Under the pieces are notes generated by a model. It saw nothing but the letters and a program-made list of their open reading frames with translations. It searched no databases and was not told where the DNA came from. Shown piece after piece: positions 41,047-59,666 of a stretch of DNA of 64,000 nucleotides (its first letter is position 1; every line of letters starts with the position of its first letter). This stretch comes from Acidobacteria bacterium 28-1 (GTDB taxonomy: Bacteria; Acidobacteriota; Blastocatellia; Pyrinomonadales; Pyrinomonadaceae): assembly GCA_002050365.1 (NCBI GenBank), contig MWYZ01000108.1, positions 16,754 to 80,753 on the forward strand, written 5' to 3'. A program made the position numbers and the translations under genes.

Positions 41047-41065
41047 AATTAAGTAATACCATTGG

Positions 41066-42078: not shown

Positions 42079-42105
42079 GTTTTCAAAACCGGCGAATCAA
42101 TCCAG

Positions 42106-42675
42106 TTAAATTTCTGCCGTGATGTCAAAGGAAATTTCCACTTCGTCCTTAACTTTGAGCGTGCCGCCGAGCGCTTTCACCTTTTTGATATTGAAATCGC
42201 TTTGTTTCAATTTAAATTCGCCTTGCGCGCGGATGGTTTTTCCGCTAATTTCCGCTTCGGCTTCGATTGTCTGCCCGCGCGTTTCACCGTGAAGCGACAA
42301 AGAGCCGTTAATTTTGATGGCGTATCTGTTGTCGGCAATTTGCCTCATCGAAACATCACGACTGACAAAGACGATCTCCGGATGCCGCGAAATTTCCAGC
42401 ACTTCTTCGCGCATCGTATTTTCTATTTCCGCCGCATCTTTGGCACTGACTTTATCGAGTAACGACAGCTTATCCGCCTGCGCTATTAACAGCATCGAAT
42501 CAACTTCCCGGTTGTCGGAATCAAGCTGTATTTCGCCGCCGTAGCGCCCGACGGCAAAAGTCGGATTGTGTCCCATAAATGAAAGCATTCCTTCGGCAAA
42601 GGCTTGCGCGGTGAAACTGCTGCGGCTGGCATCAATGCGATAACGTATTCCTAAATTTTCCGGGTTGTTCGTCAT
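42106..42675 (-). CDS. YceI-like domain protein
   Basis: YRIDASRSSFTAQAF...LSLHGETRGQTIEAEAEISGKTIRAQGEFKLKQSDFNI follows the YceI pattern. ATG is at 42675. Confidence 0.75.
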   Translation of the reverse strand: MTNNPENLGIRYRIDASRSSFTAQAFAEGMLSFMGHNPTFAVGRYGGEIQLDSDNREVDSMLLIAQADKLSLLDKVSAKDAAEIENTMREEVLEISRHPEIVFVSRDVSMRQIADNRYAIKINGSLSLHGETRGQTIEAEAEISGKTIRAQGEFKLKQSDFNIKKVKALGGTLKVKDEVEISFDITAEI

Positions 42676-42805
42676 AATTTTTAATTTGCGCCGCGTTATC
42701 TTCTTCTGTCTATTTCTAGTCAAAAAATTGCTTATGACTTATGACCGAACAGCGAATAATGAATCGAAAAGTTTTTATCTATTGCGCAAATATTTATTTT
42801 CTGTT

Positions 42806-44230
42806 TTATATTCCTCTCAAAGCCGCCCGCGCCGCAAAATAACCGCACATTCCGTGAACGCCGCCGCCCGGCGGTGTTGATGACGAGCAGATGTAAAGAC
42901 CTTTTGCAGGCGTTGAATAAAGACTTAATGTCGGGCGCAGAAAAAGCTGCCGAATGTCGTTTGAGCCGCCGCTAATATTGCCGCCAACGAGATTGGCATT
43001 GTGCCGTTCGAGTTCGGCGGGCGGCGAAACTTTTTTAGCGATAATGCAATCACGAAAGCCGGGCGCAAAGCGTTCGATTTGATTTTCGATGCGCTCGGTC
43101 ATATCAAAAGTTGAGCCGTTCGGGACGTGACAATAACCCCAAGCCGTATGTTTTCCTTCCGGCGCACGAGTCGAGTCAAACAAACTCGGCTGAGTTACGA
43201 GAACGTACGGTTTCTCGGCGTGTTTGCCTTTTGCCGGCGCGTCTTCGGAAGCGGCAATCTCGGCAAGCGTTCCGCCGAGATGAACTGTTCCGGCGCGGGC
43301 GCATTCTTTAGCCTTCCACGGAATCGGGGCGTTTAACGCCCAATCAATTTTGAACACGGCATGACCGATACGGTAACGCTCAAGTTTGCGCCGGTAACTT
43401 TTCGGCAAATGATGTCCGGCGACTTTTAACAATCCGCGCGGCGTTAGATCGCACAGCACGGCGCGTTCGGGTTTTAGTAAATTATCAATTGATTCGACGC
43501 GCGAATTTGCGACGACTTCGCCGCCGAGCGAGCGCAAATAAGAACTGAGCGCGTCGGCGATTTTCTGCGAGCCGCCGCGCGGAATCGCCCAACCAACGGC
43601 GTGTCCCGCAACGGCGAGAACGACGGCGAATGAAGCGGAAAAGGCTTGGTCGAGCGACAACATTGAGTGACCGGCAATTCCGGCAAATATCGCGCGGGCG
43701 CGTTCGCCCTTAAAATGGCTTTTTGCCAAACCTTGCGCCGAACGCCTTGCGCTTAAACCGAAGCGGGCAAACGTCAAAGGATGTTTCGGAAAACGTATCG
43801 GACCGAGCAAGTCGGCAAAGAGATTTTCCCAATCGTCAACCAACGGATTTATCAATTTGCGATACGCGGCGGCATCTTCACCAAGATTTTCGCAAGTTTC
43901 CTCAATTGATTTTTCCAACACGACCGCCGTTCCATCGTCAAGCGGATGCGCGAGCGGCGCAGGCGGTTGAATCCACTCTAAGCCGTGCGAAGCGAGCGGC
44001 AACGTGCGAAAGAACGGCGACGCAACACCGAGCGGATGCACCGCCGAGCAAATATCGTGAACAAAATTCGGCAGCGTCAATTCACCCGAACGAGTGCCGC
44101 CGCCGATAGTTTTTTCCGCTTCAAGCACTTGCACGGAACATCCGCTACGCGCCAATTCAATGGCGGCGGCAAGTCCATTTGGACCCGAACCGATAACGGT
44201 CGCCTGATTGAAATGCAGCGGTTGGCTCAT
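42806..44230 (-). CDS. Phytoene-desaturase-family (CrtI-like) NAD(P)/FAD-dependent oxidoreductase
   Basis: The N-terminal dinucleotide fold is ATVIGSGPNGLAAAIELARSGCSVQVLEA. Length is 474 aa, with a C-terminal ...GLYICSSSTPPGGGVHG. Confidence 0.8.
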   Translation of the reverse strand: MSQPLHFNQATVIGSGPNGLAAAIELARSGCSVQVLEAEKTIGGGTRSGELTLPNFVHDICSAVHPLGVASPFFRTLPLASHGLEWIQPPAPLAHPLDDGTAVVLEKSIEETCENLGEDAAAYRKLINPLVDDWENLFADLLGPIRFPKHPLTFARFGLSARRSAQGLAKSHFKGERARAIFAGIAGHSMLSLDQAFSASFAVVLAVAGHAVGWAIPRGGSQKIADALSSYLRSLGGEVVANSRVESIDNLLKPERAVLCDLTPRGLLKVAGHHLPKSYRRKLERYRIGHAVFKIDWALNAPIPWKAKECARAGTVHLGGTLAEIAASEDAPAKGKHAEKPYVLVTQPSLFDSTRAPEGKHTAWGYCHVPNGSTFDMTERIENQIERFAPGFRDCIIAKKVSPPAELERHNANLVGGNISGGSNDIRQLFLRPTLSLYSTPAKGLYICSSSTPPGGGVHGMCGYFAARAALRGI

Positions 44231-44257
44231 ATTGCGTTTGCCAGTTGTTCAAACCAA

Positions 44258-44440
44258 CTACATCATGCTGATTTTGATATACCGCTTAATATCGGGCAGA
44301 GCGGCAATTACCGTCACCGCCGCCAAAGCGAGAACCGTTCCGCCGACAATTTTCCAAGCTGTTGCCGCCGCCGAACTTTCGTCTCTGTATCTCGCCATCT
44401 GTCGGTTATCTTCTCTTCTTTCCATTTTATTGTGTTCCAT
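44258..44440 (-). CDS. Small single-TM protein
   Basis: 60 codons: a polar N-terminus, one hydrophobic helix (WKIVGGTVLALAAVTVIAAL), then PDIKRYIKISMM. As far as I recall, similar minis accompany actinobacterial-type hydrogenase clusters. Confidence 0.4.
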   Translation of the reverse strand: MEHNKMERREDNRQMARYRDESSAAATAWKIVGGTVLALAAVTVIAALPDIKRYIKISMM

Positions 44441-44473
44441 TTTCTTAATGCTCCTTGTAAATTCAAATTTTAT

Positions 44474-44992
44474 TTAGGCACAAGCCTTTTCTTGTTTTTC
44501 CGCCAAAATTTTAGTGATAAGCGATTCGACGACTTCGACCGCTTTATCAACTGCCGCTTCGACCGGTTCGCTCAAACCCATAAATCCGATGTCTTCCTCG
44601 CCGGTAAAAAGCGGCTCGCAACCGACGAGAAAGATTTTTTTGAATTCGCCGCCTAAAGTTTTGACCATACTCAAAACCTTCAGCGGGTTCATATTATGCG
44701 TATCAATCGCCGCCGGTTGCGCGTCGAGTTTATCGAGTTCGTCCAAATCCGGTTCAATAAGATAAATCGTGCCGGGCGCGTCGCCGCGCGGAGTTGCGTC
44801 AATAAATACGGTCACATCGTAACCGTCCATCAGCGCATAAGCCAAATCAAAACCGCGAATTCCGTAATCAACCACGCGCACATTTTCGGGTAATTTTCGT
44901 TCAAACAATCGTTTCGCCACTTCGCAGCCAAAAGCATCGTCGCCCAGAAAAATGTTGCCGATGCCCGCGATTAATATGCGCGGCTGTGTCAT
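44474..44992 (-). CDS. Hydrogenase maturation endopeptidase (HupD/HyaD/HybD family)
   Basis: ILIAGIGNIFLGDDAFG, VVDYG, DATPRGDAPG and HNMNP motifs. ATG 44992 is one codon inside the TTG 44995 track start. Confidence 0.85.
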   Translation of the reverse strand: MTQPRILIAGIGNIFLGDDAFGCEVAKRLFERKLPENVRVVDYGIRGFDLAYALMDGYDVTVFIDATPRGDAPGTIYLIEPDLDELDKLDAQPAAIDTHNMNPLKVLSMVKTLGGEFKKIFLVGCEPLFTGEEDIGFMGLSEPVEAAVDKAVEVVESLITKILAEKQEKACA

Positions 44993-45009
44993 CAATCAAT
45001 CTCCCTCTT

Positions 45010-45093
45010 GAAAGGATAAAGGATGAAGGATAAGGGATAAAGTAAAAACAATTCTCTTGTCTTTCTCCCTTCTCCTTTATACTTTATCCTTTC
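45010..45093. repeat. Purine-rich imperfect inverted repeat (33-nt arms)
   Basis: GAAAGGATAAAGGATGAAGGATAAGGGATAAAG (45010-45042) matches the reverse complement of 45061-45093 at 29 of 33 positions by hand. The right arm covers the last codons of the upstream gene, and the left arm abuts the protease RBS. Confidence 0.6.
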
Positions 45094-45391
45094 CTCTTAG
45101 CGGTTCGACTTCTTCCAAGGTAAAAAAGAAACGATGTCCGGGTTGCCGCATCATACCCAAATCGCGTCCCGGGTCGTCTTCCAAAACAACGGCGAGTTGA
45201 ACCTGGTCTTCGTAGGTTTGCTCGATTGATTCGATCACGGCGATTTGATTTGCCAGAGCCATATCGAAAATATCGCCGTTTTTACGCGGTCGCAGAATCA
45301 CGCGGTCGCCTTTTTTTATTTCAACGCCGGATACGCTCACCGATTCCAGCGGTGTGTGTTCTTCAAGAAGTTGCCATTCCAATTCGTTCAT
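45077..45391 (-). CDS. Conserved-looking hypothetical protein within the hydrogenase accessory arm
   Basis: 104-aa acidic ORF. I cannot assign a family. Confidence 0.45.
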   Translation of the reverse strand: MNELEWQLLEEHTPLESVSVSGVEIKKGDRVILRPRKNGDIFDMALANQIAVIESIEQTYEDQVQLAVVLEDDPGRDLGMMRQPGHRFFFTLEEVEPLRGKDKV

Positions 45392-45401
45392 TTATCCTAT
45401 T

Positions 45402-45860
45402 TTAGTTGGCTTCCATCGTCGCAGGCACTTTGCCGACCAGCGCGAAGAAGGCTAAACCCATAATCGCTCCGAAAATAATATGACCCATTAAACTCATTAT
45501 TCCCATCATTCGCATCGGTTCCATCGTCAGCGGAGCAAAGACCGGCATTCCGAGAAACAGCGGCATCAAAATTAATCCGCCTATAATCCACCAAACAACG
45601 CCCCAGATAATTCCCCATAAAATCCCCGCACCGTAGTTTTGAACGCGATTGCCGAACAGCAGACCGAACGACGCGCCGATAATCACGCTATTGAACAAAT
45701 GATAAAGCCACCCGACAACCAGACTGTCCGATTGAACGACTTTAGCCACCATTGCCATCATCGGCTTTCCGTCCGGCGCACTCATCATCGTCATTATCAT
45801 TCCGAATGCAACACCACCGATTAATGCGGCGATAATGCCTGTTACAACTTTTGATTGCAT
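45402..45860 (-). CDS. Integral membrane protein (4 TM), unknown function
   Basis: 152 aa, Gly/Ile/Met-rich hydrophobic segments. An AAGGAG RBS lies upstream of ATG 45860. Confidence 0.55.
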   Translation of the reverse strand: MQSKVVTGIIAALIGGVAFGMIMTMMSAPDGKPMMAMVAKVVQSDSLVVGWLYHLFNSVIIGASFGLLFGNRVQNYGAGILWGIIWGVVWWIIGGLILMPLFLGMPVFAPLTMEPMRMMGIMSLMGHIIFGAIMGLAFFALVGKVPATMEAN

Positions 45861-45874
45861 AGTTATTATCTCCT

Positions 45875-46162
45875 TTACAGATTTCTGTCTATAGGCAAAC
45901 TCGTTACAACCGACGTATGTTCAACTTTTACCGGCAACAACTCAAAGCCGTTGATTTCCAGTTGATGCGGAAATAAAACATCAAACGGTGCTGACAAAGA
46001 CATTTTCCCGATGCTGACCTTGATTGCCGTTTCCTAGACGCTCACAATGCTGACAAACTTTTCGTTCGACACATCTTCAATCAAACTCTGGGCATACGCA
46101 CTCAAACTCGCACTGCCTGCAATAAACCACAAAAGCGTATGGGTATCAAGCAACAGCTTCAT
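45875..46162 (-). pseudogene. vapC: VapC/PIN-domain toxin gene inactivated by an in-frame TAG and C-terminal truncation
   Basis: MKLLLDTHTLLWFIAGSASLSAYAQSLIEDVSNEKFVSIVSV-TAG(46036-46034)-ETAIKVSIGKMSL...SLPIDRNL-stop. The TAG sits where PIN toxins have the Trp of the S(V/I)WE..IK segment. The protein ends before the usual C-terminal acidic motif. Confidence 0.65.
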
Positions 46163-46389
46163 TTGCGATATTCGTCAAAATCCGCAACCGGTTCGTTAAA
46201 ATCATCCGCCAGTACAAACAAGCCTTTCGCACTGCCAAACTGCGGTCGTGGCTTTTCCTGCCGCACGGCGACGAGTTTTGCAATGGGTAAATTGTTTCGG
46301 GTGAAAATAACTTCTTCGCCTTCGACAACCGATTCAATCAAAGCAGGTAATTCAATTGTGTCGCTTTTTTCGACGCTCACTTCATACAT
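46159..46389 (-). CDS. Phd/YefM-type antitoxin
   Basis: ...VIFTRNNLPIAKLVAV...GSAKGLFVLADDFNEPVADFDEY. The stop overlaps the vapC ATG (ATGA). Confidence 0.65.
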   Translation of the reverse strand: MYEVSVEKSDTIELPALIESVVEGEEVIFTRNNLPIAKLVAVRQEKPRPQFGSAKGLFVLADDFNEPVADFDEYRK

Positions 46390-46515
46390 ACAATTTTGTT
46401 GCTTCCGAATTTAAATTTTTATCACACGCTCAAAGCAAACTTTTTCGAGAAAACACGGTAGCCGCCCAAGTTTGTATTATACGGAAGTTCCGCACAATAA
46501 CATTCTTTTCAAGAT

Positions 46516-47178
46516 TTATAACGAAACGCTCTTTGTAATTTCCTCTTCTTCCGCGAGCAGAAGTTTTTCCAACGCCTGCTCAAAGGTTGGAATACCGCGC
46601 TGCATTTTATACTTTTGCAGCCGCTCAAAAGCATCGCGGCGTAAAATTAACCACGCGCTGTTCGGATAATAATGCTCCATCATCTCTCGCCAGACGCCCA
46701 CTGATAGACTAAATTTTGCTTCCTTGCTCCAGGAAATCTGCGAGATTTGTATCGCTCCATCTTCAGCTTCATAAAAAATCGTGCCGCTGAACAACAATAA
46801 AAGCGGAATTTCGCCGGACTCGAGTCCGGCGAAATACTTTGTGCCGGCGACGTTAAAATCAAACGTGCAATTTACGGGCAAATCAACCGTCGTTGAATTT
46901 TGAAACGGCGAAACGACTGTGCTAGCGTGTGTCCACAGCATCGTTTTCAGCGTTTGTCCCCAACGCTCAGACTCGCCGAAAAGGTCGAGCATTTTTTCCT
47001 TTTCTTCACCGTTATATTGCCTGCGCGTCGGCTCAATCTGAATCTGACAACGCAGCGCGACAGTTTGAATCCATTCGTCCGGGTTTGAATTGTCAACGCG
47101 CAATTTAAAATTCAAAAGTGGCGCGACTGCGAACGGCACGGCTTCGACCGATTCGACTTGAAAATCCAAGTCAGGCAT
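46516..47178 (-). CDS. Conserved hydrogenase-cluster protein (I believe DUF6084 family)
   Basis: PDLDFQVESVEAVPFAVAPLLNFKLRVDN...VALRCQIQIEPTRRQY resembles proteins encoded next to group 1h/5 hydrogenases. The family number is from memory. Confidence 0.55.
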   Translation of the reverse strand: MPDLDFQVESVEAVPFAVAPLLNFKLRVDNSNPDEWIQTVALRCQIQIEPTRRQYNGEEKEKMLDLFGESERWGQTLKTMLWTHASTVVSPFQNSTTVDLPVNCTFDFNVAGTKYFAGLESGEIPLLLLFSGTIFYEAEDGAIQISQISWSKEAKFSLSVGVWREMMEHYYPNSAWLILRRDAFERLQKYKMQRGIPTFEQALEKLLLAEEEEITKSVSL

Positions 47179-47749
47179 TTTTTACCTCGCTGGCGCGTTC
47201 CTTCAATTTGGCGTAAAATTCCGCGATTTCCCGCCAAACTTCCGTGCCGCCGGACAATCCGCTCCAATGTGTGCGAATCAAACCGACGAGCTTGTAACAT
47301 TCGTCAATCGGCACAATATAATAATCGCGCGTATTGCCGACGCGGTTGACGAGCAATGCTTCTACATCCGCTTCCATCTGTTCCAAAATTGGATTTTCCG
47401 CTGCAATTTCGCCCCAGGATTCAAAAGATAAAAGCGATTCGGTCGCGCCCGCCGAACCCGGATAAATTGCAACTATTCTTTCATTGACCGTACTGTTGAA
47501 AAAGAACGCGAGTTGAATCGGGATTCTCAAATTGTCCCACTGCGCGTCCGTCAGGCGAAAATTCGAAAGATACCTGATGCGGCGCGGAACGCTTTTGTAT
47601 TTCGTTTCGCCCGGATTGTCGAAAAGAATCGCGCACGGCTGGCAGGCGCAGATTAGTTGACGGCTGAGCGGGTCAATCAAATGCTGATGCTCGGCGGCAA
47701 GTTCGGCATTACACATATCGCAATGCTCGAGAGCGACGCGCGGGCGCAC
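47171..47749 (-). CDS. Conserved hydrogenase-cluster protein (I believe DUF5947 family)
   Basis: The N-terminal Cys cluster is EHCDMCNAELAAEHQHLIDPLSRQLICACQPCAILF. It has an 8-nt overlap with the downstream gene. The family number is from memory. Confidence 0.55.
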   Translation of the reverse strand: MRPRVALEHCDMCNAELAAEHQHLIDPLSRQLICACQPCAILFDNPGETKYKSVPRRIRYLSNFRLTDAQWDNLRIPIQLAFFFNSTVNERIVAIYPGSAGATESLLSFESWGEIAAENPILEQMEADVEALLVNRVGNTRDYYIVPIDECYKLVGLIRTHWSGLSGGTEVWREIAEFYAKLKERASEVKNA

Positions 47750-48515: not shown

Positions 48516-49142
48516 TCATTTTACGCCCATTTTGTCAGCCATACCTTTAATCATTTCCAAGTGCATTTTCAAAGTCGGCAGTGTTTTTGTGGCAAATGCT
48601 TTCACATCCGCGTCGGCGGCTGTTTTAGAAACATTTTCGAACGCTGCGACATCTTTTTCGTGATCTTCGACCATTGCTTTGACGTATTCTTTGTCAAAGT
48701 CCGCGCCGCTCAGCTTCGATAACTTATCCATTATCTCTTTGTGTTTCGGCATCACGTCCGGCGGCAGCGTAACTTTTTTCTGCGCCGCCAACTGTTTCAA
48801 TTCTTCATTTGCCTTCGAGTGATCTTCAACCATTTTTTGACCGAAGATTTTAACTTCCGCATTTTGCGCTTTTGCAGCAGCGAGTTTACCGAGTTCGACT
48901 TCCGCCATTCCGCCCGGAGCCGCATCGTTCATAAAGGCGAGGTCGCCGCCCGTGACAACTGTATCGCCTTTATCGCTCGGCGGTTTCGCCGGATCAGTTT
49001 TTACTAACGGCTCGCTGTTCGCCGTTCCCTTATTGCCCGGCTCATTTGAACAAGCCGCTCCAATCGCAAGCAAAGTACTGACTGATATTAATAAAACTAT
49101 TGTCTTTATTTGTTTAACCATTTGTTTAATCATTGTTTCCAT
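48516..49142 (-). CDS. DUF4142 domain protein, secreted/lipoprotein (copy 1)
   Basis: The signal peptide with LAIGAACS is followed by FMNDAAPGGMAEVELGKLAAAKAQNAEVKIFGQKMVEDHSKANEELK...DFDKEYVKAMVEDHEKDVAAF. Confidence 0.8.
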   Translation of the reverse strand: METMIKQMVKQIKTIVLLISVSTLLAIGAACSNEPGNKGTANSEPLVKTDPAKPPSDKGDTVVTGGDLAFMNDAAPGGMAEVELGKLAAAKAQNAEVKIFGQKMVEDHSKANEELKQLAAQKKVTLPPDVMPKHKEIMDKLSKLSGADFDKEYVKAMVEDHEKDVAAFENVSKTAADADVKAFATKTLPTLKMHLEMIKGMADKMGVK

Positions 49143-49400: not shown

Positions 49401-50021
49401 TTACGGTTTCACGCCCATTTTGGCAGCCATACCTTTAATCATTTCTAAGCGCATTTTTATAGTTGGCAGCCTCTTCGTGGCAAACGCTTTTACATCCGCG
49501 TCGGCAGCTGTTTTAGAAACATTTTCAAATGCCGCGACATCTTTTTCGTGCGCTTCGACCATCGCTTTGACGTATTCTTTGTCAAAGTCCGCGCCGCTCA
49601 GCTTCGACAATTTATCCATCAACTCCATATGCATCGGCACCACATCCGATGGCAGCAGAACTTTTTTCTGTACCATCAACACTTTCACATCCTCGATTGC
49701 CTTCGAGTGGTCTTCAACCATTTTTTGACCGAAGGCTTTGACATCCGCGCTCTGCGCTTTTGAAGCGGCGAGATTGCCGAGTTCAATTGCCCCCATTCCG
49801 CCCGGAGCCTCGGCGATCACAAAGGCGAGATCAGCGCCGGTGATAAGCGCGTCTTCTGTATCGCTCGCCGAACCGGTTTTTATTGGCGGCTCACTGCTCG
49901 CCGCTCCATTGTTGCCCGGCTCCTTTGAACAAGCCGCTCCAATCGCAAGCAAAATACTGATTGATATCAATAAAATATTTGTTTTTATTTGTTTAATCAT
50001 TTGTTTAATTATTGTTTTCAT
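49401..50021 (-). CDS. DUF4142 domain protein, secreted/lipoprotein (copy 2)
   Basis: Clear paralogue of 48516..49142 along its whole length (same signal peptide, ...FGQKMVEDHSKAIEDVK...DFDKEYVKAMVEAHEKDVAAF). Confidence 0.8.
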   Translation of the reverse strand: MKTIIKQMIKQIKTNILLISISILLAIGAACSKEPGNNGAASSEPPIKTGSASDTEDALITGADLAFVIAEAPGGMGAIELGNLAASKAQSADVKAFGQKMVEDHSKAIEDVKVLMVQKKVLLPSDVVPMHMELMDKLSKLSGADFDKEYVKAMVEAHEKDVAAFENVSKTAADADVKAFATKRLPTIKMRLEMIKGMAAKMGVKP

Positions 50022-51011: not shown

Positions 51012-51413
51012 ATGAATCTGCCGATTTTAAGTCTACCGATAGAGAATGCTTGCGGGTGCGGGGATACGGAATCAGGCGAGAGCAACGAGTGTATGTGTCC
51101 GGCGACGGGTTTAGTGCAAATCATCGGGCGCAAATATGCACTTAGACTGCTGACAGTCATCGGCGAACGTCAAAGTATACGTTTTAACGATCTAAAGGTT
51201 GCGATGAACGATATAAGTTCTTCGACTTTGACGATTCGGTTGGCAGAACTTGAACGCGCCGGGCTCATCGAACGTCAAACGTATTCTGAGACGCCGCCGC
51301 GCGTTGAATACACGCTGTCAACAGACGGCAGGAAACTGCGGCAAAGCCTTTTCGCGCTCTCGAAATATGCGTCTAGAAAATCAGAAAGGTCAAAGTTATT
51401 GGCGGCGGAGTGA
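51012..51413 (+). CDS. HxlR-type winged-helix transcriptional regulator
   Basis: CPATGLVQIIGRKYALRLLTVIGERQSIRFNDLKVAM.DISSSTLTIRLAELERAGLIERQTYSETPPRVEYTLS. The start is uncertain, with an alternative ATG at 51093. Confidence 0.8.
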   Translation: MNLPILSLPIENACGCGDTESGESNECMCPATGLVQIIGRKYALRLLTVIGERQSIRFNDLKVAMNDISSSTLTIRLAELERAGLIERQTYSETPPRVEYTLSTDGRKLRQSLFALSKYASRKSERSKLLAAE

Positions 51414-51493: not shown

Positions 51494-51790
51494 ATGGATT
51501 CGATTACGATTTGGACATATTCGCTGATTGTCGGCGTAGTAGTGATTTTGATTGTCGCGGTTCTGCTGATTGCAATCGTTTTAACTGCCCGCAAAATTGA
51601 CGACCACGCCAAAGATATTTGGCAAGCCGGAAAACTAATCGCCGGAAATACGGTTTCGATTTGGATGTTGAAAGACACTAACGTCGTCGCGGGCGATATT
51701 CTTACAACCGCTCAATCCATCGCCGGAGTCGCCGGAGAAATCAATAATAAACTTGACGATTTGGGACAGGCATTAACCAAAGGAGCGTAA
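51494..51790 (+). CDS. Small bitopic membrane protein, type A (paralogue of 52176..52508)
   Basis: It has a GGAGGA RBS and an N-terminal TM segment (LIVGVVVILIVAVLLIAIVL). It then reads TARKIDDHA...LIAGNT...TN.VA... in an Ala/Gly/Leu-rich helical tail. Confidence 0.7.
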   Translation: MDSITIWTYSLIVGVVVILIVAVLLIAIVLTARKIDDHAKDIWQAGKLIAGNTVSIWMLKDTNVVAGDILTTAQSIAGVAGEINNKLDDLGQALTKGA

Positions 51791-51795
51791 ATTAT

Positions 51796-52089
51796 ATGGA
51801 ACTGCTGACTTGGTTGACGATTATTTACGCGGTGATTTTGGTGCTGACCTTGGCGGTCGGGTTGATTGCGATTTTGACGACTTTGATGAGCGTTGCCAAA
51901 AAACTCGGCGCAATCAGCGCGGGTTTGCAGGTGGTCGAGCAAAATACCGCGCCGCTCAATGCTGGAGTTGAACAATTAAACGGCTCGCTCGGCGGATTGG
52001 CTGGCGGTTTGATGGTCGCCGAATCTAGTTTTGCTTCGGCGAACGAGCATTTGCAGGAAACGCTCGACGCGGTAACGGTTGCGCGTTAA
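51796..52089 (+). CDS. Small bitopic membrane protein, type B (paralogue of 52508..52807)
   Basis: It has an AAGGAG RBS and an N-terminal TM segment. It then reads ...VEQNTAPLNAGVEQLNGSLGGLAGG...SANEHLQ. Confidence 0.7.
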   Translation: MELLTWLTIIYAVILVLTLAVGLIAILTTLMSVAKKLGAISAGLQVVEQNTAPLNAGVEQLNGSLGGLAGGLMVAESSFASANEHLQETLDAVTVAR

Positions 52090-52093
52090 TTAC

Positions 52094-52163
52094 GTCAGAA
52101 CCGCCTGCGGTAGCGGGCGGGTATTCGACGCAGCTACCCGCCCGCTACCGCAGGCGGTCTGAC
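52094..52163. repeat. REP doublet (inverted pair) forming a roughly 27-bp stem
   Basis: GTCAGAACCGCCTGCGGTAGCGGGCGGG (52094-52121) pairs with CCCGCCCGCTACCGCAGGCGGTCTGAC (52137-52163). It has the same sequence as the REPs flanking the RAYT gene at 55001-55617. Confidence 0.85.
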
Positions 52164-52175
52164 CGGAGGGTTTAT

Positions 52176-52508
52176 ATGTTTTTAATCGAACTAACTCCTA
52201 ATGCAGAACTCGCGGTTAAAATCGCGTGGTCTGTCGGATTGATTCTCGCCCTGATTGTCACGGCGATTGATGTTCATTTGTTAATTCGCGTAATTAAAGC
52301 CGCCCGCAAAATTGACCGCTTGGCGGGCAGAACTTTGACGGCGGCTGGCGGAATCGCGGGCAATACTTCAGCACTAAAAAATTTGACGGCAACCAACGAA
52401 GTCGCCGCCGCGCTGATTGCGGGCGCGACACCGATTGTAAGTGTCGCCGATGCGATTGATAAAAAACTGTCGGCAGTTTCGACATTTTTCGGCGGAGGTA
52501 AGAAATAA
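52176..52508 (+). CDS. Small bitopic membrane protein, type A (paralogue of 51494..51790)
   Basis: It has a GGAGGG RBS and a TM segment. It then reads KAARKIDRLA...GIAGNTSALKNLTATNEVAAALIAG. Confidence 0.7.
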   Translation: MFLIELTPNAELAVKIAWSVGLILALIVTAIDVHLLIRVIKAARKIDRLAGRTLTAAGGIAGNTSALKNLTATNEVAAALIAGATPIVSVADAIDKKLSAVSTFFGGGKK

Positions 52509-52807
52509 TGGACACGGTTTTATTATTGACAATTTTAACGATTGTCGCCGCCGCAGTTTTACTCATTGCGCTCGGTATTGGATTGTTTCAAATCGCGCTT
52601 GGCTTGGAAGGCATCGGTTCGAGCCTCGACAAAATCGCTTATGGCGTGCGGGCAATTGAAACCGAAACCTCGCCTTTGCCCATTTGCATTGACGGCATCA
52701 ACGGTTCGCTCGCGCCGGTGGTCGGCGGTTTTGAAGCGGTCGGCGAAAGTTTAACGAGTGCAGACGCACATTTAGGAAATGTTGCCGGAGTTTTGGGCAT
52801 TAAGTGA
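52508..52807 (+). CDS. Small bitopic membrane protein, type B (paralogue of 51796..52089)
   Basis: The start overlaps the previous stop (TAATG), with a GGAGG RBS. After a TM segment it reads ...IETETSPLPICIDGINGSLAPVVGG...SADAHLG. Confidence 0.7.
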   Translation: MDTVLLLTILTIVAAAVLLIALGIGLFQIALGLEGIGSSLDKIAYGVRAIETETSPLPICIDGINGSLAPVVGGFEAVGESLTSADAHLGNVAGVLGIK

Positions 52808-52815
52808 AGAAATGA

Positions 52816-52893
52816 AACCACAGATAGACACAGATGATTTTAAGATAAAACAAAATCGGTTTTAATCTTTTGTTATCCGTGTTTATCTGTGGT
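52816..52893. repeat. Second copy of the CACAGATA-type palindromic element
   Basis: AACCACAGATAGACACAGAT (52816-52835) matches the reverse complement of ATCCGTGTTTATCTGTGGT (52875-52893) with two mismatches plus one unpaired terminal base. Same family as 19085-19182. Confidence 0.75.
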
Positions 52894-52906: not shown

Positions 52907-53728
52907 ATGAAAATAGGAATCAGCGGCAAAGGTGGTTCGGGTAAAACGACAATTTCGGCGACGCTGGCGCGTGTCTTTGCGCGTCAAGGTTTTCCCGTTT
53001 TGGCGATTGACGGCGACCCGAATCCGAATCTGGGAATGGCTCTGGGTTTAAAAGCCGAAACGCTCGAAGAAACTCATTCTATTCCGCGCAGTATTGTCGA
53101 AAGAAAAGAAGACGCGGACGGCAAAATGCGGATGGTTTTAAAAGATTCGGTGGAAAACATTACTGCGCTACACGGCATTGCCGCGCCAGACGGAATTCGT
53201 TTGATAGTTGGCACGAAAGTCGAAAATCCGGGCGCGGGCTGACTCTGTTCCGCACACGCTGCCGTGCGCAGCCTGATGGGAGAAATCGTTTCGGAAGCCG
53301 ACAATATCACTGTGATGGATATGGAAGCGTCTTTGGAACACCTGAGTCGCGGCACGGTTCGCCACGTTGACGTTTTGCTGATTGTTACCGAACCGTATTA
53401 TCGTTCGCTTGAAACCGCCCGCCGGACTTTGCCGCTCGCTCGCGGTCTCGGCATCAATCACATTTACGCCGTCGTCAATAAATATCGAAGCGCGGAAGAC
53501 GAGAAAGCCGTGACGAGTTTTTGCCGAAACAATGATTTGGAAATTATCGCCAAAATTCCTTTTGACGAAAACGTAACGAAAGCCGATTTGGAAGGAAAAT
53601 CTTTATACGATTTTAATTCCGCCGCGCCCGTTGTGACGGAAGTTGAAAAACTCGCTGCGACATTGCGCGAGCGTGTGCCGCTGAATAATTCTTCGGCGAG
53701 CAAAATATTAACCAAGCCGAACTGTTAG
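52907..53728 (+). CDS. CooC/MinD-type P-loop NTPase (metallocentre maturation factor-like) with an in-frame UGA at 53240-53242; candidate selenoprotein
   Basis: Track ORFs 52907..53242 and 53264..53728 share one frame, with no further stop in between. Read-through gives MKIGISGKGGSGKTT...LIVGTKVENPGAG-U-LC-SAHAAVRSLMGEIV...DMEASLEHLSRGT... The UGA falls at the first Cys of the CooC-type G.GCxC metal motif. Confidence 0.55.
53258..53272 (+). other. Candidate SECIS-like hairpin GCUGC-CGUGC-GCAGC
   Basis: 5-bp GC stem with a 5-nt loop. It is extendable by CA/UG across a C-C mismatch and starts 16 nt after the UGA. Confidence 0.3.
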
Positions 53729-53743: not shown

Positions 53744-55000
53744 ATGTTAGACGACCCTAAATCACTAGCCGGAAACCCGACTGACAATAACGTCGCGCCG
53801 CAGGTCAAACCAGAAGAGAAACTGGCGGAGCTTTCCTTCGGACCTTTGAAGACGGTTCACGTTTTTTGGCTGGCGGGAATGAGCTGCGACGGCTGCACGG
53901 TTGCCGTGGCGGGCGCGACGCAGCCGCCGCTTGAAAATTTGCTGACCGGAACGGTTACCGGCGTTCCGCAGGTTATTCTTCATCATCCGGTGTTATCAAT
54001 CGAAGCGGGCGAGGAATTTATTGCAAATTTTTACAAGGCTGAACGTGGCGAACTCGACGCGCCTTATGTCGTTTGCTATGAAGGCTCAATCGCTGACGAA
54101 AGAATCGCGGCGGCAACCGGCGGATATTTCTCGGCAATCGGTTCGGAACGCTTGAGCGATGACGTTCACCGTCCGATTCCGACAACCGAATGGCTCAAAA
54201 GACTTGCGCCGGGCGCGGCGGCTGTCATTGCAATCGGAACTTGCGCAACGTGGGGCGGAATTCCCGCCGCCGCCGGAAACCCGACGAACTCGATGAGTTT
54301 GATGGATTTTCTCGGCAAAGATTATCGCGGCACCGCCGGTTTGCCGGTCATTAACATTCCGGGATGCGCGCCCGTCGGCGACAATTTTACCGAAACGGTG
54401 GCGATGGTTTTGCTTTTCCTGCAAGGCATCGGACCGCTGCCCGAATTTGACGAACTCGGTCGTCCGGCGTGGCTTTTCAAGGAAACCGTGCATCAGCGAT
54501 GCGTTCGCGGCGGTTATTATGAAGAAGGTATTTTTGCCACCGAATACGGCGGCAAAGAGTGTCTGGTGGAAATCGGCTGTTGGGGTCCGGTTGTGCAGTG
54601 CAATATCACGCAACGCGGAGCAATCAATCACATGGGCGGCTGTATGAACACGGGCGGCGTTTGTATCGGCTGCACGATGCCCGGTTTTCCCGACAAATTC
54701 GCGCCCTTTTATAAAACGCCGCCGGGTTCGACGGTTTCCAGCAATGCCGTGCGGACTTACGGCGCAGTCATCAGGCGGTTGCGGCGAATGACGCAGCAGT
54801 TTCAAAATATGGAGCCGCGCTGGGATGAAAGCAATCAGCCCGTTCCGAGCGGTTGGGGGCAAGTCGAAAAACCGTCTCTGGTCAATAAGGCAATCCATTA
54901 TCTTTATGAAAAAATGCAGTATCGCGGTTCGGTCAGACCGGGCGATTATGTCGGTGAAGGCTCGCTTAAAGCGAAGGGAAAACATACGCCGGAAGTTTAA
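53744..55000 (+). CDS. [NiFe]-hydrogenase small subunit without twin-arginine signal (group 1h/5, HhyS-like)
   Basis: VHVFWLAGMSCDGCTVA is the proximal cluster motif, and further Cys clusters include GCWGPVVQCN and GGVCIGCTMPGFPD. The N-terminus lacks RRxF. It has a GAGGAG RBS. Confidence 0.9.
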   Translation: MLDDPKSLAGNPTDNNVAPQVKPEEKLAELSFGPLKTVHVFWLAGMSCDGCTVAVAGATQPPLENLLTGTVTGVPQVILHHPVLSIEAGEEFIANFYKAERGELDAPYVVCYEGSIADERIAAATGGYFSAIGSERLSDDVHRPIPTTEWLKRLAPGAAAVIAIGTCATWGGIPAAAGNPTNSMSLMDFLGKDYRGTAGLPVINIPGCAPVGDNFTETVAMVLLFLQGIGPLPEFDELGRPAWLFKETVHQRCVRGGYYEEGIFATEYGGKECLVEIGCWGPVVQCNITQRGAINHMGGCMNTGGVCIGCTMPGFPDKFAPFYKTPPGSTVSSNAVRTYGAVIRRLRRMTQQFQNMEPRWDESNQPVPSGWGQVEKPSLVNKAIHYLYEKMQYRGSVRPGDYVGEGSLKAKGKHTPEV

Positions 55001-55617
55001 GTCAGAACCGTTTGCGGTAGCGAACGGGTTTTTACGCAATTATGTGGAACGATACCGACACACCTTTAGCCTATTTAATTACGTTTCGCACTTACGGAAC
55101 GTGGTTGCACGGTGATTCTCGCGGGTCTGTTGACCGATTTCATAATGTTTATAATTCGCCGTTTATTACAGCGAATGAAAGATGGCGACAATATAATACG
55201 CAAGTGCTTAAAGATAAACCTGTTTTACTGAACACAAAACAGCGTGAAACGGTTGAATTTGCCATCCGCGAAACCTGCGAGAAACGCAATTGGTTATTGC
55301 GGGCAATCAACGTGCGAACAAATCACGTTCATACCGTAATCACAATCGGCTTAGAAAAACCGGAAAAGGCACTTAACGCTTTCAAGGCAAATGCGACAAG
55401 AAAGATGCGCGAAGATAAGTGTTGGAATTCCGAAAATAGTCCTTGGGCTGTCAAAGGAAGTCGGCGTTACTTGTGGAATGAACGCAGTATCGAGATAGCG
55501 ATTGATTATGTGATTAATGGGCAAGGTGATGAGTTACTGAAGTTTGATTAAGCGTGGTTTTTAGTCGTTGGCTGCCGAACGACATTTTACCCGCCCGCTA
55601 CCGCAGGCGGTTCTGAC
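55001..55617 (+). mobile_element. REPtron: RAYT transposase gene bracketed by inverted REP sequences, inserted between the hydrogenase subunit genes
   Basis: The left REP is GTCAGAACCGTTTGCGGTAGCGAACGGG (55001-55028) and the right REP is CCCGCCCGCTACCGCAGGCGGTTCTGAC (55590-55617). They are inverted relative to each other. The left REP begins at the first base after the small-subunit stop, and the right REP ends 9 nt before the large-subunit ATG. Confidence 0.8.
55042..55551 (+). CDS. REP-associated tyrosine transposase (RAYT, IS200/IS605 Y1 superfamily)
   Basis: YLITFRTYGTWLHGDSRG, the HUH motif TNHVHTVI, and Tyr in the GSRRYLWNERS region. Length is 169 aa. Confidence 0.8.
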   Translation: MWNDTDTPLAYLITFRTYGTWLHGDSRGSVDRFHNVYNSPFITANERWRQYNTQVLKDKPVLLNTKQRETVEFAIRETCEKRNWLLRAINVRTNHVHTVITIGLEKPEKALNAFKANATRKMREDKCWNSENSPWAVKGSRRYLWNERSIEIAIDYVINGQGDELLKFD

Positions 55618-55626: not shown

Positions 55627-57534
55627 ATGTGCTTCAAAAATTTACCGATTGAATTCGACGAGCAGGGCAAGGCTTTTTTAAAGGGCGGCATCCGCGACCC
55701 GTATTCGACCAAAAACGCGATTACCTCGGTTGGCGAAGTCAAGCAAATGCCATACGACACGGTGCGCGAACTGCTGGCGCGAAACGGCTACATCAAAGAC
55801 GTTGATTTCGACCCGGTTACGCGCGTCGCCGGCGCGCTCGCTTTTCACGGCGTGGCGGATTTGGAAAACCGCAAGTTTATCGAAGCGCGTTCGATGGCGA
55901 CTTTGTTTCGCGGCTACGAAATTATTATGCAGGGACGCGACCCGCGCGACGCGATTTTTATCACGAGCCGCGCCTGCGGCGTGTGCGGCGGCGTTCACTC
56001 GTCGTGCGCCGCTTTAGGAATCGAGATGGCTTTTGGCATCACGCCGCCGCCGCTCGGAATTATCGTGCGAAATCTGATGCTCTCGCTCGAATTTTTATAT
56101 GACAATCCGCTGCATCTTTTCCTGCTCGCCGGACCCGATTATTCGGAACTGATAGTCAAAGCGACGACTCCGAGTTTGTGGGAAAAAGCCCTAAAGACCG
56201 CCGCCCCGAATGCCGAGCATCACGGCTATGCGATGATGAGCGATTTGATGCGCGATATGAACCCGCTTTCAGGAAATCTTTATCTCGAAGCGCTGCATAT
56301 GACGCGCGTCGCGCGTGAAGCGTATGTCGTTATCGGCGGTAAATATCCGCATCCCGAAACGCTCGTGCCGGGCGGTGTCAGCACGACCGTCACTCTGCAA
56401 ACTTTCAACGAAATTTACAGCCGGCTGCATCAATTTTTCGATTACTCGAAAAAAGTGGTAATGATTTGGGACGATTTGACCGACTTTTTCTACGATGCAA
56501 ATCCCGAATATCGGAAAAACGGAATGCGGGCGGCGAATATGGTTGACTTGGGAATTTGGGATGACCCTGACGTTTACGACGCGACCTACGAAAATTGCAA
56601 CGAATGGGGCAAAAATCGCTGGTCAACGCCGGGCGCAATTATCGGCGGCGAACTTGTTACCACCGATTTACAAAGTATCAATTTGGGGATGGAAGAGTTT
56701 ATCGAACACTCGTTCTACGAACAATGGTCAAACGGCGATGGTAATGGCGGCGGTTTGAAACATCCGACCGACCCGAAAGGTGCGCCGCTCTCGCCGTATC
56801 ACCCGTGGAACAAGCAAACTCTGCCGCGTCCGACGGGACAAAATTGGCGCGAAAAATATACCTGGGCAACGTCACCGCGCTGGGATAGGCAGGTTTTTGA
56901 AGCCGGTTCTTACGCCCGCGTTTGGAACACCGCCGCCGCGCAGAAAATTCGCCCGAATCCGTTTATTGAATCTACGGGAACGAGCCTGAAAATGCGTCTG
57001 CCAAAAGCGGCAAAACCGGAAATGAATATCGAATGGAAGATTCCGACCGATTGGAACACTTTCGAGCGCAACAAAGCGCGTGCTTACGGCGTGGCTTTTA
57101 CGGCACTCGTCGCAATGAACGATTGGCTCAAAGGTCTCGACCTTTTGAAAAAAGGAGAAACAAAAGTCAGCACCGAATTTGAGATTCCGAAAACAAACCG
57201 CATCGGCGTCGGATTCTGGGGGGCGGGACGCGGTTTTCTCTCGCATCATATGGAACTCGACAAGGGCATCGTAACCAACTATCAAATCGTTACGCCTTCG
57301 ACGATTAACGCTTCGCCGATGGACGCTTGGGACAAACACGGAGCGTATGAAGAAGCCGTGCTGAACACGCCGATTCTCGAAGAATTCGACAAACCGGAAA
57401 ATTACAAAGGCATTGATTTGCTGCGGACTTTGCGGAGTTTCGACCCGTGTATGCCCTGCACAACGCACATCTACGCGGGTGAGCACAAAGTTGTCAGGGA
57501 AATCAACACTTGCGCTTGCGGCGTTGACGGTTAA
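55627..57534 (+). CDS. [NiFe]-hydrogenase large subunit (group 1h/5, HhyL-like)
   Basis: The N-terminal motif is SRACGVCGGVHSSCAA and the C-terminal motif is FDPCMPCTTH, followed by a 21-aa tail that would be removed by the maturation protease. Confidence 0.9.
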   Translation: MCFKNLPIEFDEQGKAFLKGGIRDPYSTKNAITSVGEVKQMPYDTVRELLARNGYIKDVDFDPVTRVAGALAFHGVADLENRKFIEARSMATLFRGYEIIMQGRDPRDAIFITSRACGVCGGVHSSCAALGIEMAFGITPPPLGIIVRNLMLSLEFLYDNPLHLFLLAGPDYSELIVKATTPSLWEKALKTAAPNAEHHGYAMMSDLMRDMNPLSGNLYLEALHMTRVAREAYVVIGGKYPHPETLVPGGVSTTVTLQTFNEIYSRLHQFFDYSKKVVMIWDDLTDFFYDANPEYRKNGMRAANMVDLGIWDDPDVYDATYENCNEWGKNRWSTPGAIIGGELVTTDLQSINLGMEEFIEHSFYEQWSNGDGNGGGLKHPTDPKGAPLSPYHPWNKQTLPRPTGQNWREKYTWATSPRWDRQVFEAGSYARVWNTAAAQKIRPNPFIESTGTSLKMRLPKAAKPEMNIEWKIPTDWNTFERNKARAYGVAFTALVAMNDWLKGLDLLKKGETKVSTEFEIPKTNRIGVGFWGAGRGFLSHHMELDKGIVTNYQIVTPSTINASPMDAWDKHGAYEEAVLNTPILEEFDKPENYKGIDLLRTLRSFDPCMPCTTHIYAGEHKVVREINTCACGVDG

Positions 57535-57623: not shown

Positions 57624-57857
57624 ATGACTAACGAAGAAATTTTGCGCGAAATTAATTCTCTGCCGCTTGAAGCTCAACGCCAGATTGAAGATTTTGTTTT
57701 TTTTCTGCGAGAGCGTTACAAATCGCCGCAACCGGAAAGCATTCCGGCTTCTGATTTACAAACCGAAGCGTTTGTCGGAATGTGGCGCGACCGCGAAGAT
57801 ATAAGCGACAGTTCGGCTTGGGTTCGCAGCGTCCGCGAAACACATTGGAGCAAGTGA
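57624..57857 (+). CDS. VapB-type antitoxin (DUF2281-like)
   Basis: The 77-aa protein MTNEEILREINSLPLEAQRQIEDFVFFLRERY... ends 1 nt before the PIN toxin gene. Confidence 0.6.
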   Translation: MTNEEILREINSLPLEAQRQIEDFVFFLRERYKSPQPESIPASDLQTEAFVGMWRDREDISDSSAWVRSVRETHWSK

Positions 57858-57858
57858 G

Positions 57859-58251
57859 ATGGCTTTAACCATTGTGGATTCGGACATTTTAATTGACGTG
57901 GCGCGTGGCGACAGCGACGCAATCAATTATTGCCAGCGTCTTGAAAAAGCTTCCGTTTTGGCTGTCAGCACCGTAACACAATTGGAATTGATTGTCGGTT
58001 GTCGAAACAAAACGGAGTTGAAAGACCTCGAAAAATTTCTGAATCGTTACCAGATTCTGAAAATCACCGACCAAATCTCCGACCGCGCGGTTGATTTATT
58101 GAAACAATATTTTTTGAGTCACGGTTTGTTAATTGCCGACGGGCTGATTGCCGCAACTGCGCTTGTTCACAATGAAGCGTTCGTATCAAAGAACCAACGC
58201 GACTTTCGTTTTATCGCAGGCTTGAATTTATCACCCTATCCATTAAATTAA
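57859..58251 (+). CDS. vapC: VapC PIN-domain toxin
   Basis: The N-terminal acidic motif is IVDSDILID. It also has ...SKNQRDF near the C-terminus. Length is 130 aa. Confidence 0.8.
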   Translation: MALTIVDSDILIDVARGDSDAINYCQRLEKASVLAVSTVTQLELIVGCRNKTELKDLEKFLNRYQILKITDQISDRAVDLLKQYFLSHGLLIADGLIAATALVHNEAFVSKNQRDFRFIAGLNLSPYPLN

Positions 58252-58261: not shown

Positions 58262-58765
58262 GTGAAAGTTTTAATCGCCGGAGTCGGTCATCCCAACTTA
58301 AAAGATTTATCTTTCGGACAGGTTTTGCTTCCGCATTTAAAAAAGCAAAAATGGGCGAAAGATTTCGACCTTGAAAATTTGAGTTTCGGCGCGATTGCGG
58401 TTTTGCAGTGGTTTCAGGATTTTCCCGGTAAATACGAGAGAGTCGTTTTCGTTTCGGCGGCGGAACGCGCAGGACGCAAGCCCGGAACTTTGGACGTTTA
58501 TAAGTGGGATTTTGCGCCGCTTGACGAGGAAGTCGTGCAGGAATGCGTGGCTGAATCGGTCACGGGAATTATCAGTCTGGATAATTTGATGATGATTTTG
58601 CAGTATTTCAAGGCTTTGCCGCCGGAAGTCGTTGTGTTAGACCTTGAGCCGATTGATTCGGAAATTGGTTTTGAATGCAGTCCCGAAATTACGGCGCGTT
58701 TTGATGAGTTCGGCGAAATTATCAGAGAGAAGGCGACGGCAAAATTGGAAACTAAAAATGAGTGA
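58262..58765 (+). CDS. Second, divergent HupD/HyaD-like hydrogenase maturation protease homologue
   Basis: VLIAGVGHPNLKDLSFGQVL...RVVFVSAAERAGRKPGTLDVY parallels ILIAGIGNIFLGDDAFG...VTVFIDATPRGDAPGTIYL of the 44474..44992 protein. The GDD motif is not conserved. Confidence 0.55.
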   Translation: MKVLIAGVGHPNLKDLSFGQVLLPHLKKQKWAKDFDLENLSFGAIAVLQWFQDFPGKYERVVFVSAAERAGRKPGTLDVYKWDFAPLDEEVVQECVAESVTGIISLDNLMMILQYFKALPPEVVVLDLEPIDSEIGFECSPEITARFDEFGEIIREKATAKLETKNE

Positions 58766-59666
58766 AATAACCACGGAAGTTGCAGAAGAAACAACCGCTT
58801 TCGACCAATTAAATATCCTGCTCGAATCAATCGAACAGCACCCGGAAGAAGCGGTTCGCAACCACGTTCGCGCTCTGGTTTATACGCTGCTCGACCTTCA
58901 TCACGGCGCGTTGCAGCGCATTGTCGAAATAGTTTCCGCGCAGCCGACGGGCGAAAAAATATTGCAGGAATTAAGCGACGACGAGCTTGTGCAGGCGGTT
59001 TTGATGGTTCACGAATTGATGGCGCAGCCGCTTGAAACGCGCATTGAAAACGCGCTCGAAATCGCCCGCGAGCAACTGAAAATTTACGGCGCGGATGTCG
59101 AACTCATTGAAGTCAAAAACGGAGTTGCTCAATTAAAACTTTTTGGCGGCGCATCAACCGCGAATGTTTCGACCACTATTCTAAAAGCCGAAATCGAACA
59201 CGCTTTGCACGAACACACGCCCGATTTGCTCAACGTCGAATACGAAGACACGATTGCTCCGACGCGCCCGCCGAAATTGGTGCAGATTCTGCCGCGCCAA
59301 CCCGTTCAAAACACCGCGTCGAAGGAATTTTTTATGGCGATAATCCGCGCCGACCAGGTTCCTGATAACGGACTGCGTGTTGTTGAAACGGGCGGCATCA
59401 ATTTGCTCTTGTGCAATGTGGCGGGAACGATTTACACTTTTCAAAATGCTTGCGCCGAAGGGAATTTGCCGCTTGACGAAAGTATTTTAGAAGACGGCGT
59501 TTTGACTTGTCCGTGCCACGGTTATCAATTCGACGCGCGGCAAAAAGGACGCTGTTTGACCGACCCGAAATTGCGGCTTGAAGCGTTGCCGATGCGAGTG
59601 GAAAATGATGTTGTTAAAGTCGCTTTGCCAAAGGAGGACGAAATAAATGCAGGAACAAACCATTGA
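58758..59666 (+). CDS. NifU-like + Rieske-like two-domain protein (HhyE-like accessory protein)
   Basis: The NifU C-terminal-like segment is IENALEIAREQLKIYGADVELIEVKNGVAQLKLFGG. The Rieske-like C-terminus carries CPCHGYQFD. ATG 58758 overlaps the previous gene by 8 nt. Confidence 0.6.
   Translation: MSEITTEVAEETTAFDQLNILLESIEQHPEEAVRNHVRALVYTLLDLHHGALQRIVEIVSAQPTGEKILQELSDDELVQAVLMVHELMAQPLETRIENALEIAREQLKIYGADVELIEVKNGVAQLKLFGGASTANVSTTILKAEIEHALHEHTPDLLNVEYEDTIAPTRPPKLVQILPRQPVQNTASKEFFMAIIRADQVPDNGLRVVETGGINLLLCNVAGTIYTFQNACAEGNLPLDESILEDGVLTCPCHGYQFDARQKGRCLTDPKLRLEALPMRVENDVVKVALPKEDEINAGTNH

Follow-up and report, generated by a model that had tools for sequence, protein, structure and literature searches.

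The stretch of DNA analysed here, hereafter referred to as the window, comprises 64,000 nucleotides from Acidobacteria bacterium 28-1 (Pyrinomonadaceae; assembly GCA_002050365.1, contig MWYZ01000108.1, positions 16,754 to 80,753 of the forward strand). It harbours a [NiFe]-hydrogenase gene cluster, in which four small open reading frames (ORFs), designated A1, B1, A2 and B2, are located between the gene for an HxlR-family regulator and the genes for a CooC-like ATPase and the small and large hydrogenase subunits (Table 1). An earlier note, made from the sequence alone, had placed these regulator, ATPase and subunit genes on the same strand, which was confirmed. The four small genes are considered here as candidates for membrane-anchoring subunits of the adjacent hydrogenase.

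The coordinates of the four ORFs of about 100 amino acids match exactly those reported before, and the strong Shine-Dalgarno sequences attributed to them were recovered as GGAG or GGAGG ahead of every start codon. The junctions are likewise as described, with a spacing of 5 nt between A1 and B1 and an overlap of A2 and B2 in the sequence TAATG. A1 and A2 share 39% identity (E = 4e-12) and B1 and B2 share 37% (E = 2e-16), which bears out the paralogy of the first with the third and of the second with the fourth protein, and with it the duplicated A-B/A-B arrangement that the earlier note had proposed. Homology between A and B was not detected, neither by BLASTP (E = 0.013) nor by hhalign (probability 0.75%), and because the profile-profile comparison gave no homology, A and B were kept as two separate profiles. 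As the transmembrane (TM) module is made of two alternating families, it originated from an A-B pair that was duplicated. The best conserved of the four proteins is A1, which displays the motif IW.AGK.IAGNTVSIWML..TN.VAG.IL. All four genes are retained in the same order in 10 other species genomes at 71–92% amino-acid identity, and they are real genes. The doublet of repetitive extragenic palindromic (REP) elements noted between the two gene pairs was located as two inverted copies.

Table 1. Features of the hydrogenase locus, with positions in the window
Feature	Position	Strand	Basis or remark
HxlR-family winged-helix regulator	51012-51413	+	Pfam HxlR, E = 5e-20
A1, single-pass TM protein with coiled-coil tail, 98 aa	51494-51790	+	ORF list
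B1, single-pass TM protein, 97 aa	51796-52089	+	ORF list
Inverted REP pair in the B1-A2 spacer	52101-52157	.	Specific to this genome
A2, A1 paralogue, 110 aa	52176-52508	+	ORF list
B2, B1 paralogue, 99 aa	52508-52807	+	ORF list; overlaps the end of A2
19-nt inverted repeat (89% complementary, 39-nt loop) in the B2-CooC spacer	52817-52893	.	
CooC/CbiA-type P-loop ATPase (nickel-insertion type), in-frame TGA	52907-53728	+	
[NiFe]-hydrogenase small subunit, HylS-like	53744-55000	+	
REP-associated tyrosine transposase (RAYT), between small and large subunit genes	55042-55551	+	
[NiFe]-hydrogenase large subunit, HylL-like	55627-57534	+	
Conserved hypothetical protein	58262-58765	+	In related clusters, located behind the gene for the large subunit
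NifU-Rieske fusion, HhyE/HylE-type putative electron relay	58644-59666	+	True start probably near 58760

Each of the four proteins possesses one 19-residue hydrophobic segment near its N-terminus (Kyte-Doolittle mean 2.4–3.7), followed by an Ala/Gly/Leu-rich tail of about 70 residues. In A1, B1 and A2 the TM segment is followed by Lys or Arg residues, and therefore an N-out, C-in topology is suggested, in which the predicted extracytoplasmic N-termini preceding the TM segment are 3–21 residues long. The hydrophobicity of the tails has a period of 3.4–3.5 residues, which is the value of coiled coils. Clusters of Cys or His are absent from the four window proteins, in which Cys occurs only once, in B2, and His as isolated residues. 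AlphaFold2 monomer models of A1 and B1 are all-helical, B1 forming one continuous helix from residue 2 to 96 at a predicted local distance difference test (pLDDT) score of 79. Hydropathy, residue content and structure models thus agree on the architecture claimed beforehand, i.e., one N-terminal TM helix and a helical tail without Cys/His clusters. A Foldseek search of the PDB with the B1 model returned no matches, which is to be expected because this model is a single long helix. Among the PDB sequences, the B profile matched only designed coiled-coil bundles and barrels, a likeness that, judged from the sequences, is one of heptad pattern and not of homology; the A profile retrieved nothing meaningful. 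Scans of the four window proteins against Pfam and NCBIfam yielded sub-threshold noise only.

The weak Pfam signals include DUF948, to which the earlier note had pointed. Proteins of the DUF948/YoxC type (PF06103, COG4768) resemble A and B in consisting of an N-terminal TM helix and a helical, Ala/Leu-rich tail, and the four genes could accordingly code for generic stress or membrane proteins of this type that lie near hydrogenase genes by chance. B1 matches DUF948 with E = 0.06, and weak matches were obtained for 6 of 17 B members (best E = 0.003). However, the 13.9 bits scored by B1 are far below the Pfam gathering threshold of 37.2 bits, all other scores are far under this cut-off as well, and the A family is devoid of a comparable signal (1 of 17 members, E = 0.98). 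DUF948 proteins are not known for any linkage to hydrogenases, whereas the four genes are linked to hydrogenase genes in every informative context (see below); a chance neighbourhood is effectively refuted by this synteny and has to be regarded as extremely improbable.

Searches with the A pair and the B pair retrieved 386 and 215 proteins, respectively, the named ones of which belong to Pyrinomonadaceae or other Acidobacteriota, and an A1-type query (lower-GC A1 homologues) retrieved 858 proteins, the majority of them unnamed or from Acidobacteriota. Against 1.84 billion representatives, the B profile produced 599 matches at E <= 1e-3, of which 79 reached E <= 1e-10; among the 150 B-profile matches listed, nearly all are full-length and 85–120 aa in size. 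The gene order HxlR-A1-B1-A2-B2-CooC-HylS-HylL was observed in all 10 related species genomes (L001–L010). In addition, the genomic contexts of 12 representatives were inspected, 10 of which were informative, the remaining two being situated on a 576-bp contig (L029) and on a 1.3-kb contig with small TM genes only (L017). The TM block adjoins structural or maturation genes of a [NiFe]-hydrogenase in all 10 informative contexts.

The position of the block relative to the structural genes differs between lineages. It is located between the genes for the small and the large subunit as a set of four in L016 and L018, as a set of five in L023 and L027, and as A1-B1-A2-B2 in L012, where the order is PadR-CbiA-small-[A1 B1 A2 B2]-large-...-NifU/Rieske-protease-HypFCDE. 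Four genes precede the small and large subunit genes in L019, with CooC ahead of the block, and in L021, with a helix-turn-helix (HTH) gene ahead of it; in L026 four genes precede the small subunit gene. Four small ORFs, not scored with the hidden Markov models (HMMs) of A and B, are followed by HypF-HypC in L030. HMM scoring revealed the order to be always A, B, A, B, and in the four-gene loci compared the first to fourth genes (orf1–orf4) are orthologous to A1, B1, A2 and B2, respectively. Identities amount to 52–67% for the A1 orthologues (L012, L016, L018, L019 and L021), and in the four-gene loci compared to 36–45% for B1, 36–43% for A2 and 42–49% for B2. The five-gene sets in L023 and L027 consist of homologues of the window proteins, of both the A-type and the B-type. 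Named relatives assign L016 to Chloroflexota, L023 to Anaerolineae and L019 to Acidobacteria/Pyrinomonadaceae. The TM block is strictly co-localised with one hydrogenase lineage across multiple phyla (Acidobacteriota and Chloroflexota) and in lineages without assignment.

These gene orders bear on two functions other than anchoring. A membrane-bound sensing or regulatory module working together with the HxlR regulator, which the earlier note had offered besides a tether or scaffold, would agree with the HxlR gene directly upstream of the block in all Pyrinomonadaceae loci (L001–L010) and with the automatic annotation of some B members as 'YoxC', a DUF948-type name, by the Joint Genome Institute (JGI). 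The regulator varies, however, from PadR (L012, L027) via HTH_17 (L021) to an HxlR gene downstream of the block (L019), and a neighbouring regulator may also be lacking, while the block remains constant; moreover, an output or ligand-binding domain is lacking and the extracytoplasmic N-termini are very short, so that a sensing role appears highly improbable. A scaffold for biogenesis, holding the apo-enzyme at the membrane during Ni and Fe-S cluster insertion with the CooC-like ATPase and leaving it afterwards, would account for the adjacency of the block to the CooC-like gene in the window and in L019 as well as for hypF and hypC directly after the block in L030. Such a transient role is nevertheless unlikely: in several lineages the block resides between the structural genes, a position typical of subunits, the A1 orthologues are conserved like the catalytic subunits (58–65% identity), and the window set is devoid of metal-binding motifs.

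The hydrogenase had been labelled as group 1h in the earlier note. Its large subunit shares 41.4% identity with the group 1h type enzyme HofG from Cupriavidus necator and 39–42% with other group 1h enzymes, values that are borderline with respect to the '<40%' published for group 1l, and a tblastn search of plasmids with the large subunit as query retrieved canonical group 1h enzymes only, at about 40% identity. To every TM-linked large subunit recovered it is 58–65% identical. The window large subunit has the N-terminus MCFKNLPIEFDEQG and a C-terminus in which SFDPCMPCTTHI occurs and which closes with a ..TCAC.. tail; the complete large subunits recovered share the N-terminus MCFKNLP(I/V)EFD and the C-terminal SFDPCMPCTTHI, followed by a (T/S)CAC tail. 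The small subunit is devoid of a twin-arginine translocation (Tat) motif, as had been stated previously. Its SCDGC motif aligns to GCDGD of 5AA5_A, indicating a four-Cys proximal cluster, and the motif is retained throughout the related small subunits. Past the point at which the 5AA5 alignment ends, the small subunit continues with a C-terminal extension of only about 50 residues (about 100 aa are reported in Hymenobacter), which holds an (F/Y)(F/L)Y helix conserved across the lineage.

The traits listed for group 1l in Supplementary Note 1 of bioRxiv 10.1101/2020.08.06.239558 include the absence of a Tat motif, a four-Cys proximal cluster and a C-terminal extension of HylS. The proximal cluster of group 1h is of the Cys3Asp type. 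A metagenomic survey assigned group 1l to a metagenome-assembled genome of Pyrinomonadaceae (PMC10833075). In view of the low large-subunit identity and of a proximal cluster with four Cys instead of Cys3Asp, the group 1h label is not upheld, and the enzyme, as far as its primary structure tells, is not a canonical group 1h hydrogenase. A 'Group 1h' label carried by a close large-subunit homologue (Table S7) was rejected as evidence, since the respective contig has a second hydrogenase, to which the label belongs.

According to the passages on group 1l clusters in bioRxiv 10.1101/2020.08.06.239558 (Ortiz et al., also PNAS 2021), five small single-pass TM proteins, HylTM1–5, are encoded between hylS and hylL and were proposed to act as a membrane anchor via HylS's C-terminal extension. 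The description of a 2026 AlphaFold3 model of the Hymenobacter enzyme (PMC13554262) has the HylTM helices adjoin this extension and intertwine to tube-like scaffolds which hold the cytosolic core at the membrane. The view of the earlier note that the four proteins are not part of described hydrogenase clusters therefore has to be abandoned: HylTM1–5 are presented in the preprint as a hallmark of group 1l clusters, and the TM feature itself has very probably been described already, as HylTM.

As described for Hymenobacter roseosalivarius in the same passages, HylTM1–5 are, like the window proteins, small single-pass TM proteins of low mutual identity, are encoded within the structural cluster of a Tat-less hydrogenase with a four-Cys proximal cluster and a C-terminal extension of the small subunit (about 50 residues in the window versus about 100 in Hymenobacter), and have been assigned the same role of a membrane anchor or scaffold. 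The window differs from this description in possessing four genes instead of five, and in their position, which is upstream of the CooC-like and hylS genes and not, as for HylTM1–5, between hylS and hylL. The HylTM description applies to the five-gene loci L023 and L027, including the tri-cysteine sequence CPGCPQC with which one member terminates, and their members are A and B homologues; therefore, the window set is taken to be a four-gene, relocated version of HylTM. The four genes thus probably code for homologues of HylTM that serve as membrane-anchoring stalk subunits of the adjacent cytoplasmic group 1l-type [NiFe]-hydrogenase. From the functions suggested in the earlier note, the heteromeric membrane tether stands as the best reading, which matches the published proposals, and the sensing module does not.

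In the arrangement proposed, the single N-terminal helix of each protein would reside in the membrane with its N-terminus outside and its C-terminus inside, and the heptad-repeat helix of about 70 residues would reach into the cytoplasm. A1, B1, A2 and B2 may be present in one copy each and would pack as a heteromeric bundle or tube of coiled coils. The stalk so formed would bind to the small subunit at its C-terminal extension, which is specific to the lineage, and keep the (HylSL)2 core at the membrane, such that electrons from the distal Fe-S cluster could reach the respiratory quinone; the A/B bundle could possibly act as a quinone conduit. Permanent structural subunits are favoured because of the conserved gene order, the translational coupling, the conservation at the level of catalytic subunits, the heptad periodicity and the absence of cofactor motifs.

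The last of these features also bears on redox-active membrane subunits, which would transfer electrons in place of a cytochrome b. None of the annotated cluster ORFs was recognised as a cytochrome b gene, and a member with a CxxCxxC tail occurs in five-gene relatives (in L023 it is the small TM protein encoded second, at 2907–3215, which ends in CPGCPQC), both of which would be in keeping with such a function. However, the window proteins have no Cys/His clusters, the Cys-motif member is absent from the window, and each protein contributes a single TM helix, rendering this explanation very unlikely. Cytochrome b anchors of group 1 uptake hydrogenases (HyaC/HoxZ type) resemble the window set in that both are proposed to act at the membrane as the connection between an uptake hydrogenase and the quinone pool. 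They are four-TM dihaem proteins serving Tat-exported periplasmic enzymes, in contrast to the window proteins with their one TM helix, no haem-ligating His pairs and a cytoplasmic enzyme. All four alternative explanations are less well supported than a function as stalk subunits.

Several points weigh against the assignment as stalk subunits. With regard to topology, Lys and Arg are absent from the 15 residues that follow the TM segment of B2. The A1 monomer model comprises two helices (residues 3–51 and 57–97) at a weak pLDDT of 64, structure prediction covered monomers, which limits its bearing on an A/B assembly, and the HylTM assembly in the published description (PMC13554262) is itself a predicted model. 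The window proteins are likened to HylTM by the published description of the latter, and not by an alignment with the Hymenobacter sequences, which makes the correspondence a putative one. Furthermore, the CooC-like gene intervenes between the block and hylS, the window set is without a Cys-motif (tri-cysteine) member, and the sub-lineage of the window may represent 'group 1m'. Clusters of group 1m were reported to contain two single-TM proteins (82–92 aa), a CooC-type ATPase and adjacent genes for the small and large subunits (Ray et al., PMC9561532). The window agrees with them in the adjacent subunit genes, the CooC-type ATPase and the single-pass TM proteins without recognisable domains; group 1m, compared here by its description, differs by two TM proteins instead of four and is reported in Actinobacteriota only.

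The closest functional analogue is HucM from the group 2a hydrogenase Huc of Mycobacterium smegmatis, a tetrameric coiled-coil tube which joins the enzyme to the membrane and has been proposed to conduct menaquinone (PMC10017518). Both systems would link a cytosolic hydrogenase for atmospheric H2 to the membrane by a helical accessory stalk or tube, which is predicted in case of the window. HucM is a 189-residue homotetramer peripheral on the membrane, whereas the window encodes four different proteins of about 100 residues, each with a true TM helix, and no Huc chain was matched when the A and B profiles were compared with all PDB sequences at E <= 10. It is conceivable, if rather doubtful, that A1, B1, A2 and B2 form a heterotetrameric alpha-helical barrel with a hydrophobic lumen, through which respiratory quinone passes from the membrane to the distal Fe-S cluster of the group 1l hydrogenase, as an independently evolved, non-homologous counterpart of HucM, the duplicated A-B pair representing the minimal core and the Cys-motif subunit an optional add-on.

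In the Antarctic desert soils of the Mackay Glacier region, no hydrogenase family is reported to be as abundant as group 1l (bioRxiv 10.1101/2020.08.06.239558), and oxidation of atmospheric H2 is predicted for group 1l enzymes. As the electron link from this Tat-less cytoplasmic enzyme to the respiratory chain, the HylTM proteins are the sole candidates. New here are the two-family A-B/A-B structure of the TM module, of which no mention was found in the published passages on group 1l, the retention of the order A1-B1-A2-B2 in at least two phyla at a free operon position, and the four-gene version without Cys-motif member. These three additions narrow down the essential core and define targets for multimer modelling, deletion and co-purification.

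The gene for the CooC-like ATPase harbours an in-frame TGA codon at 53240–53242, within a CxC motif (G-A-G-U-L-C-S-A-H). Since the full-length protein requires decoding of this TGA, the ATPase is a candidate selenoprotein. The codon is kept in 14 loci checked as well as in L027, across several divergent lineages (loci named with it: L001–L010, L016, L019, L020 and L027), and L012, L013 and L023 have TGC (Cys) at the same position. A conserved 5-bp hairpin, GCUGC-N5-GCAGC, with two compensatory changes is located 18 nt 3' of the TGA. A gene for tRNA-Sec was not found within the window. In the second small TM protein of L027 (4576–4920) and L028 (3424–3770), the sequence CPG-TGA-PVC was detected, in which TGA replaces the middle Cys codon; judging from the codons, the tri-Cys motif of these TM proteins is possibly a second pair of selenocysteine (Sec) and Cys variants in the same operon type. 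A literature search retrieved no report of either TGA candidate, i.e., the CooC-like ATPase and the tri-Cys TM protein.

The window locus carries several insertions between its conserved genes. The REP sequence CCGCCTGCGGTAGCGGGCGGGTA is present at 52101–52123 (+) and 52135–52157 (-) in the B1-A2 spacer, which measures about 24–37 nt in L001–L010, and a third copy is found at 55588–55610, the chance expectation being none. The spacer between B2 and the CooC-like gene comprises 99 nt in the window versus about 7 nt in relatives (L004 ORFs 7304–7603 and 7611–7946); its 19-nt inverted repeat is not an obvious terminator, because no T-run follows it. The RAYT gene is flanked by REP-like hairpins (55008–55027 and 55588–55610) and is absent from L002, L004, L005, L006 and L010. 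The REP pair, the RAYT gene and the 99-nt spacer with its inverted repeat were seen only in the window and not in relatives, where the genes are almost contiguous, and therefore a single operon is supported. In a promoter consensus scan the number of sites did not exceed the chance expectation, and the interval between the TM block and hylS showed no convincing terminator. The RAYT insertion raises the question whether small and large subunits remain co-transcribed in the window genome.

Directly after the large subunit gene, a small ORF and a PIN-domain gene (57624–58251), resembling a VapBC-like toxin-antitoxin pair, interrupt the run from the large subunit gene to the conserved downstream genes. 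The first of these downstream genes, coding for the conserved hypothetical protein, has counterparts by size and position of 162 aa in L004 and 161 aa in L012, both without Pfam match. Genes for HypE, HypD, HypB, a HycI-type endopeptidase and a DUF6084 and DUF5947 pair are located on the minus strand at 34982–47749, and together with these divergent maturation genes a hydrogenase island of roughly 25 kb is formed. The cluster is further flanked by genes for two DUF4142 proteins and a DUF417 protein on the minus strand (48516–49142 and 49401–50021). Homologues of DUF4142 and DUF417 proteins are also encoded after the large subunit gene in L004 (11799–12431), and the DUF4142 and DUF417 genes may thus belong to the same hydrogenase gene neighbourhood.

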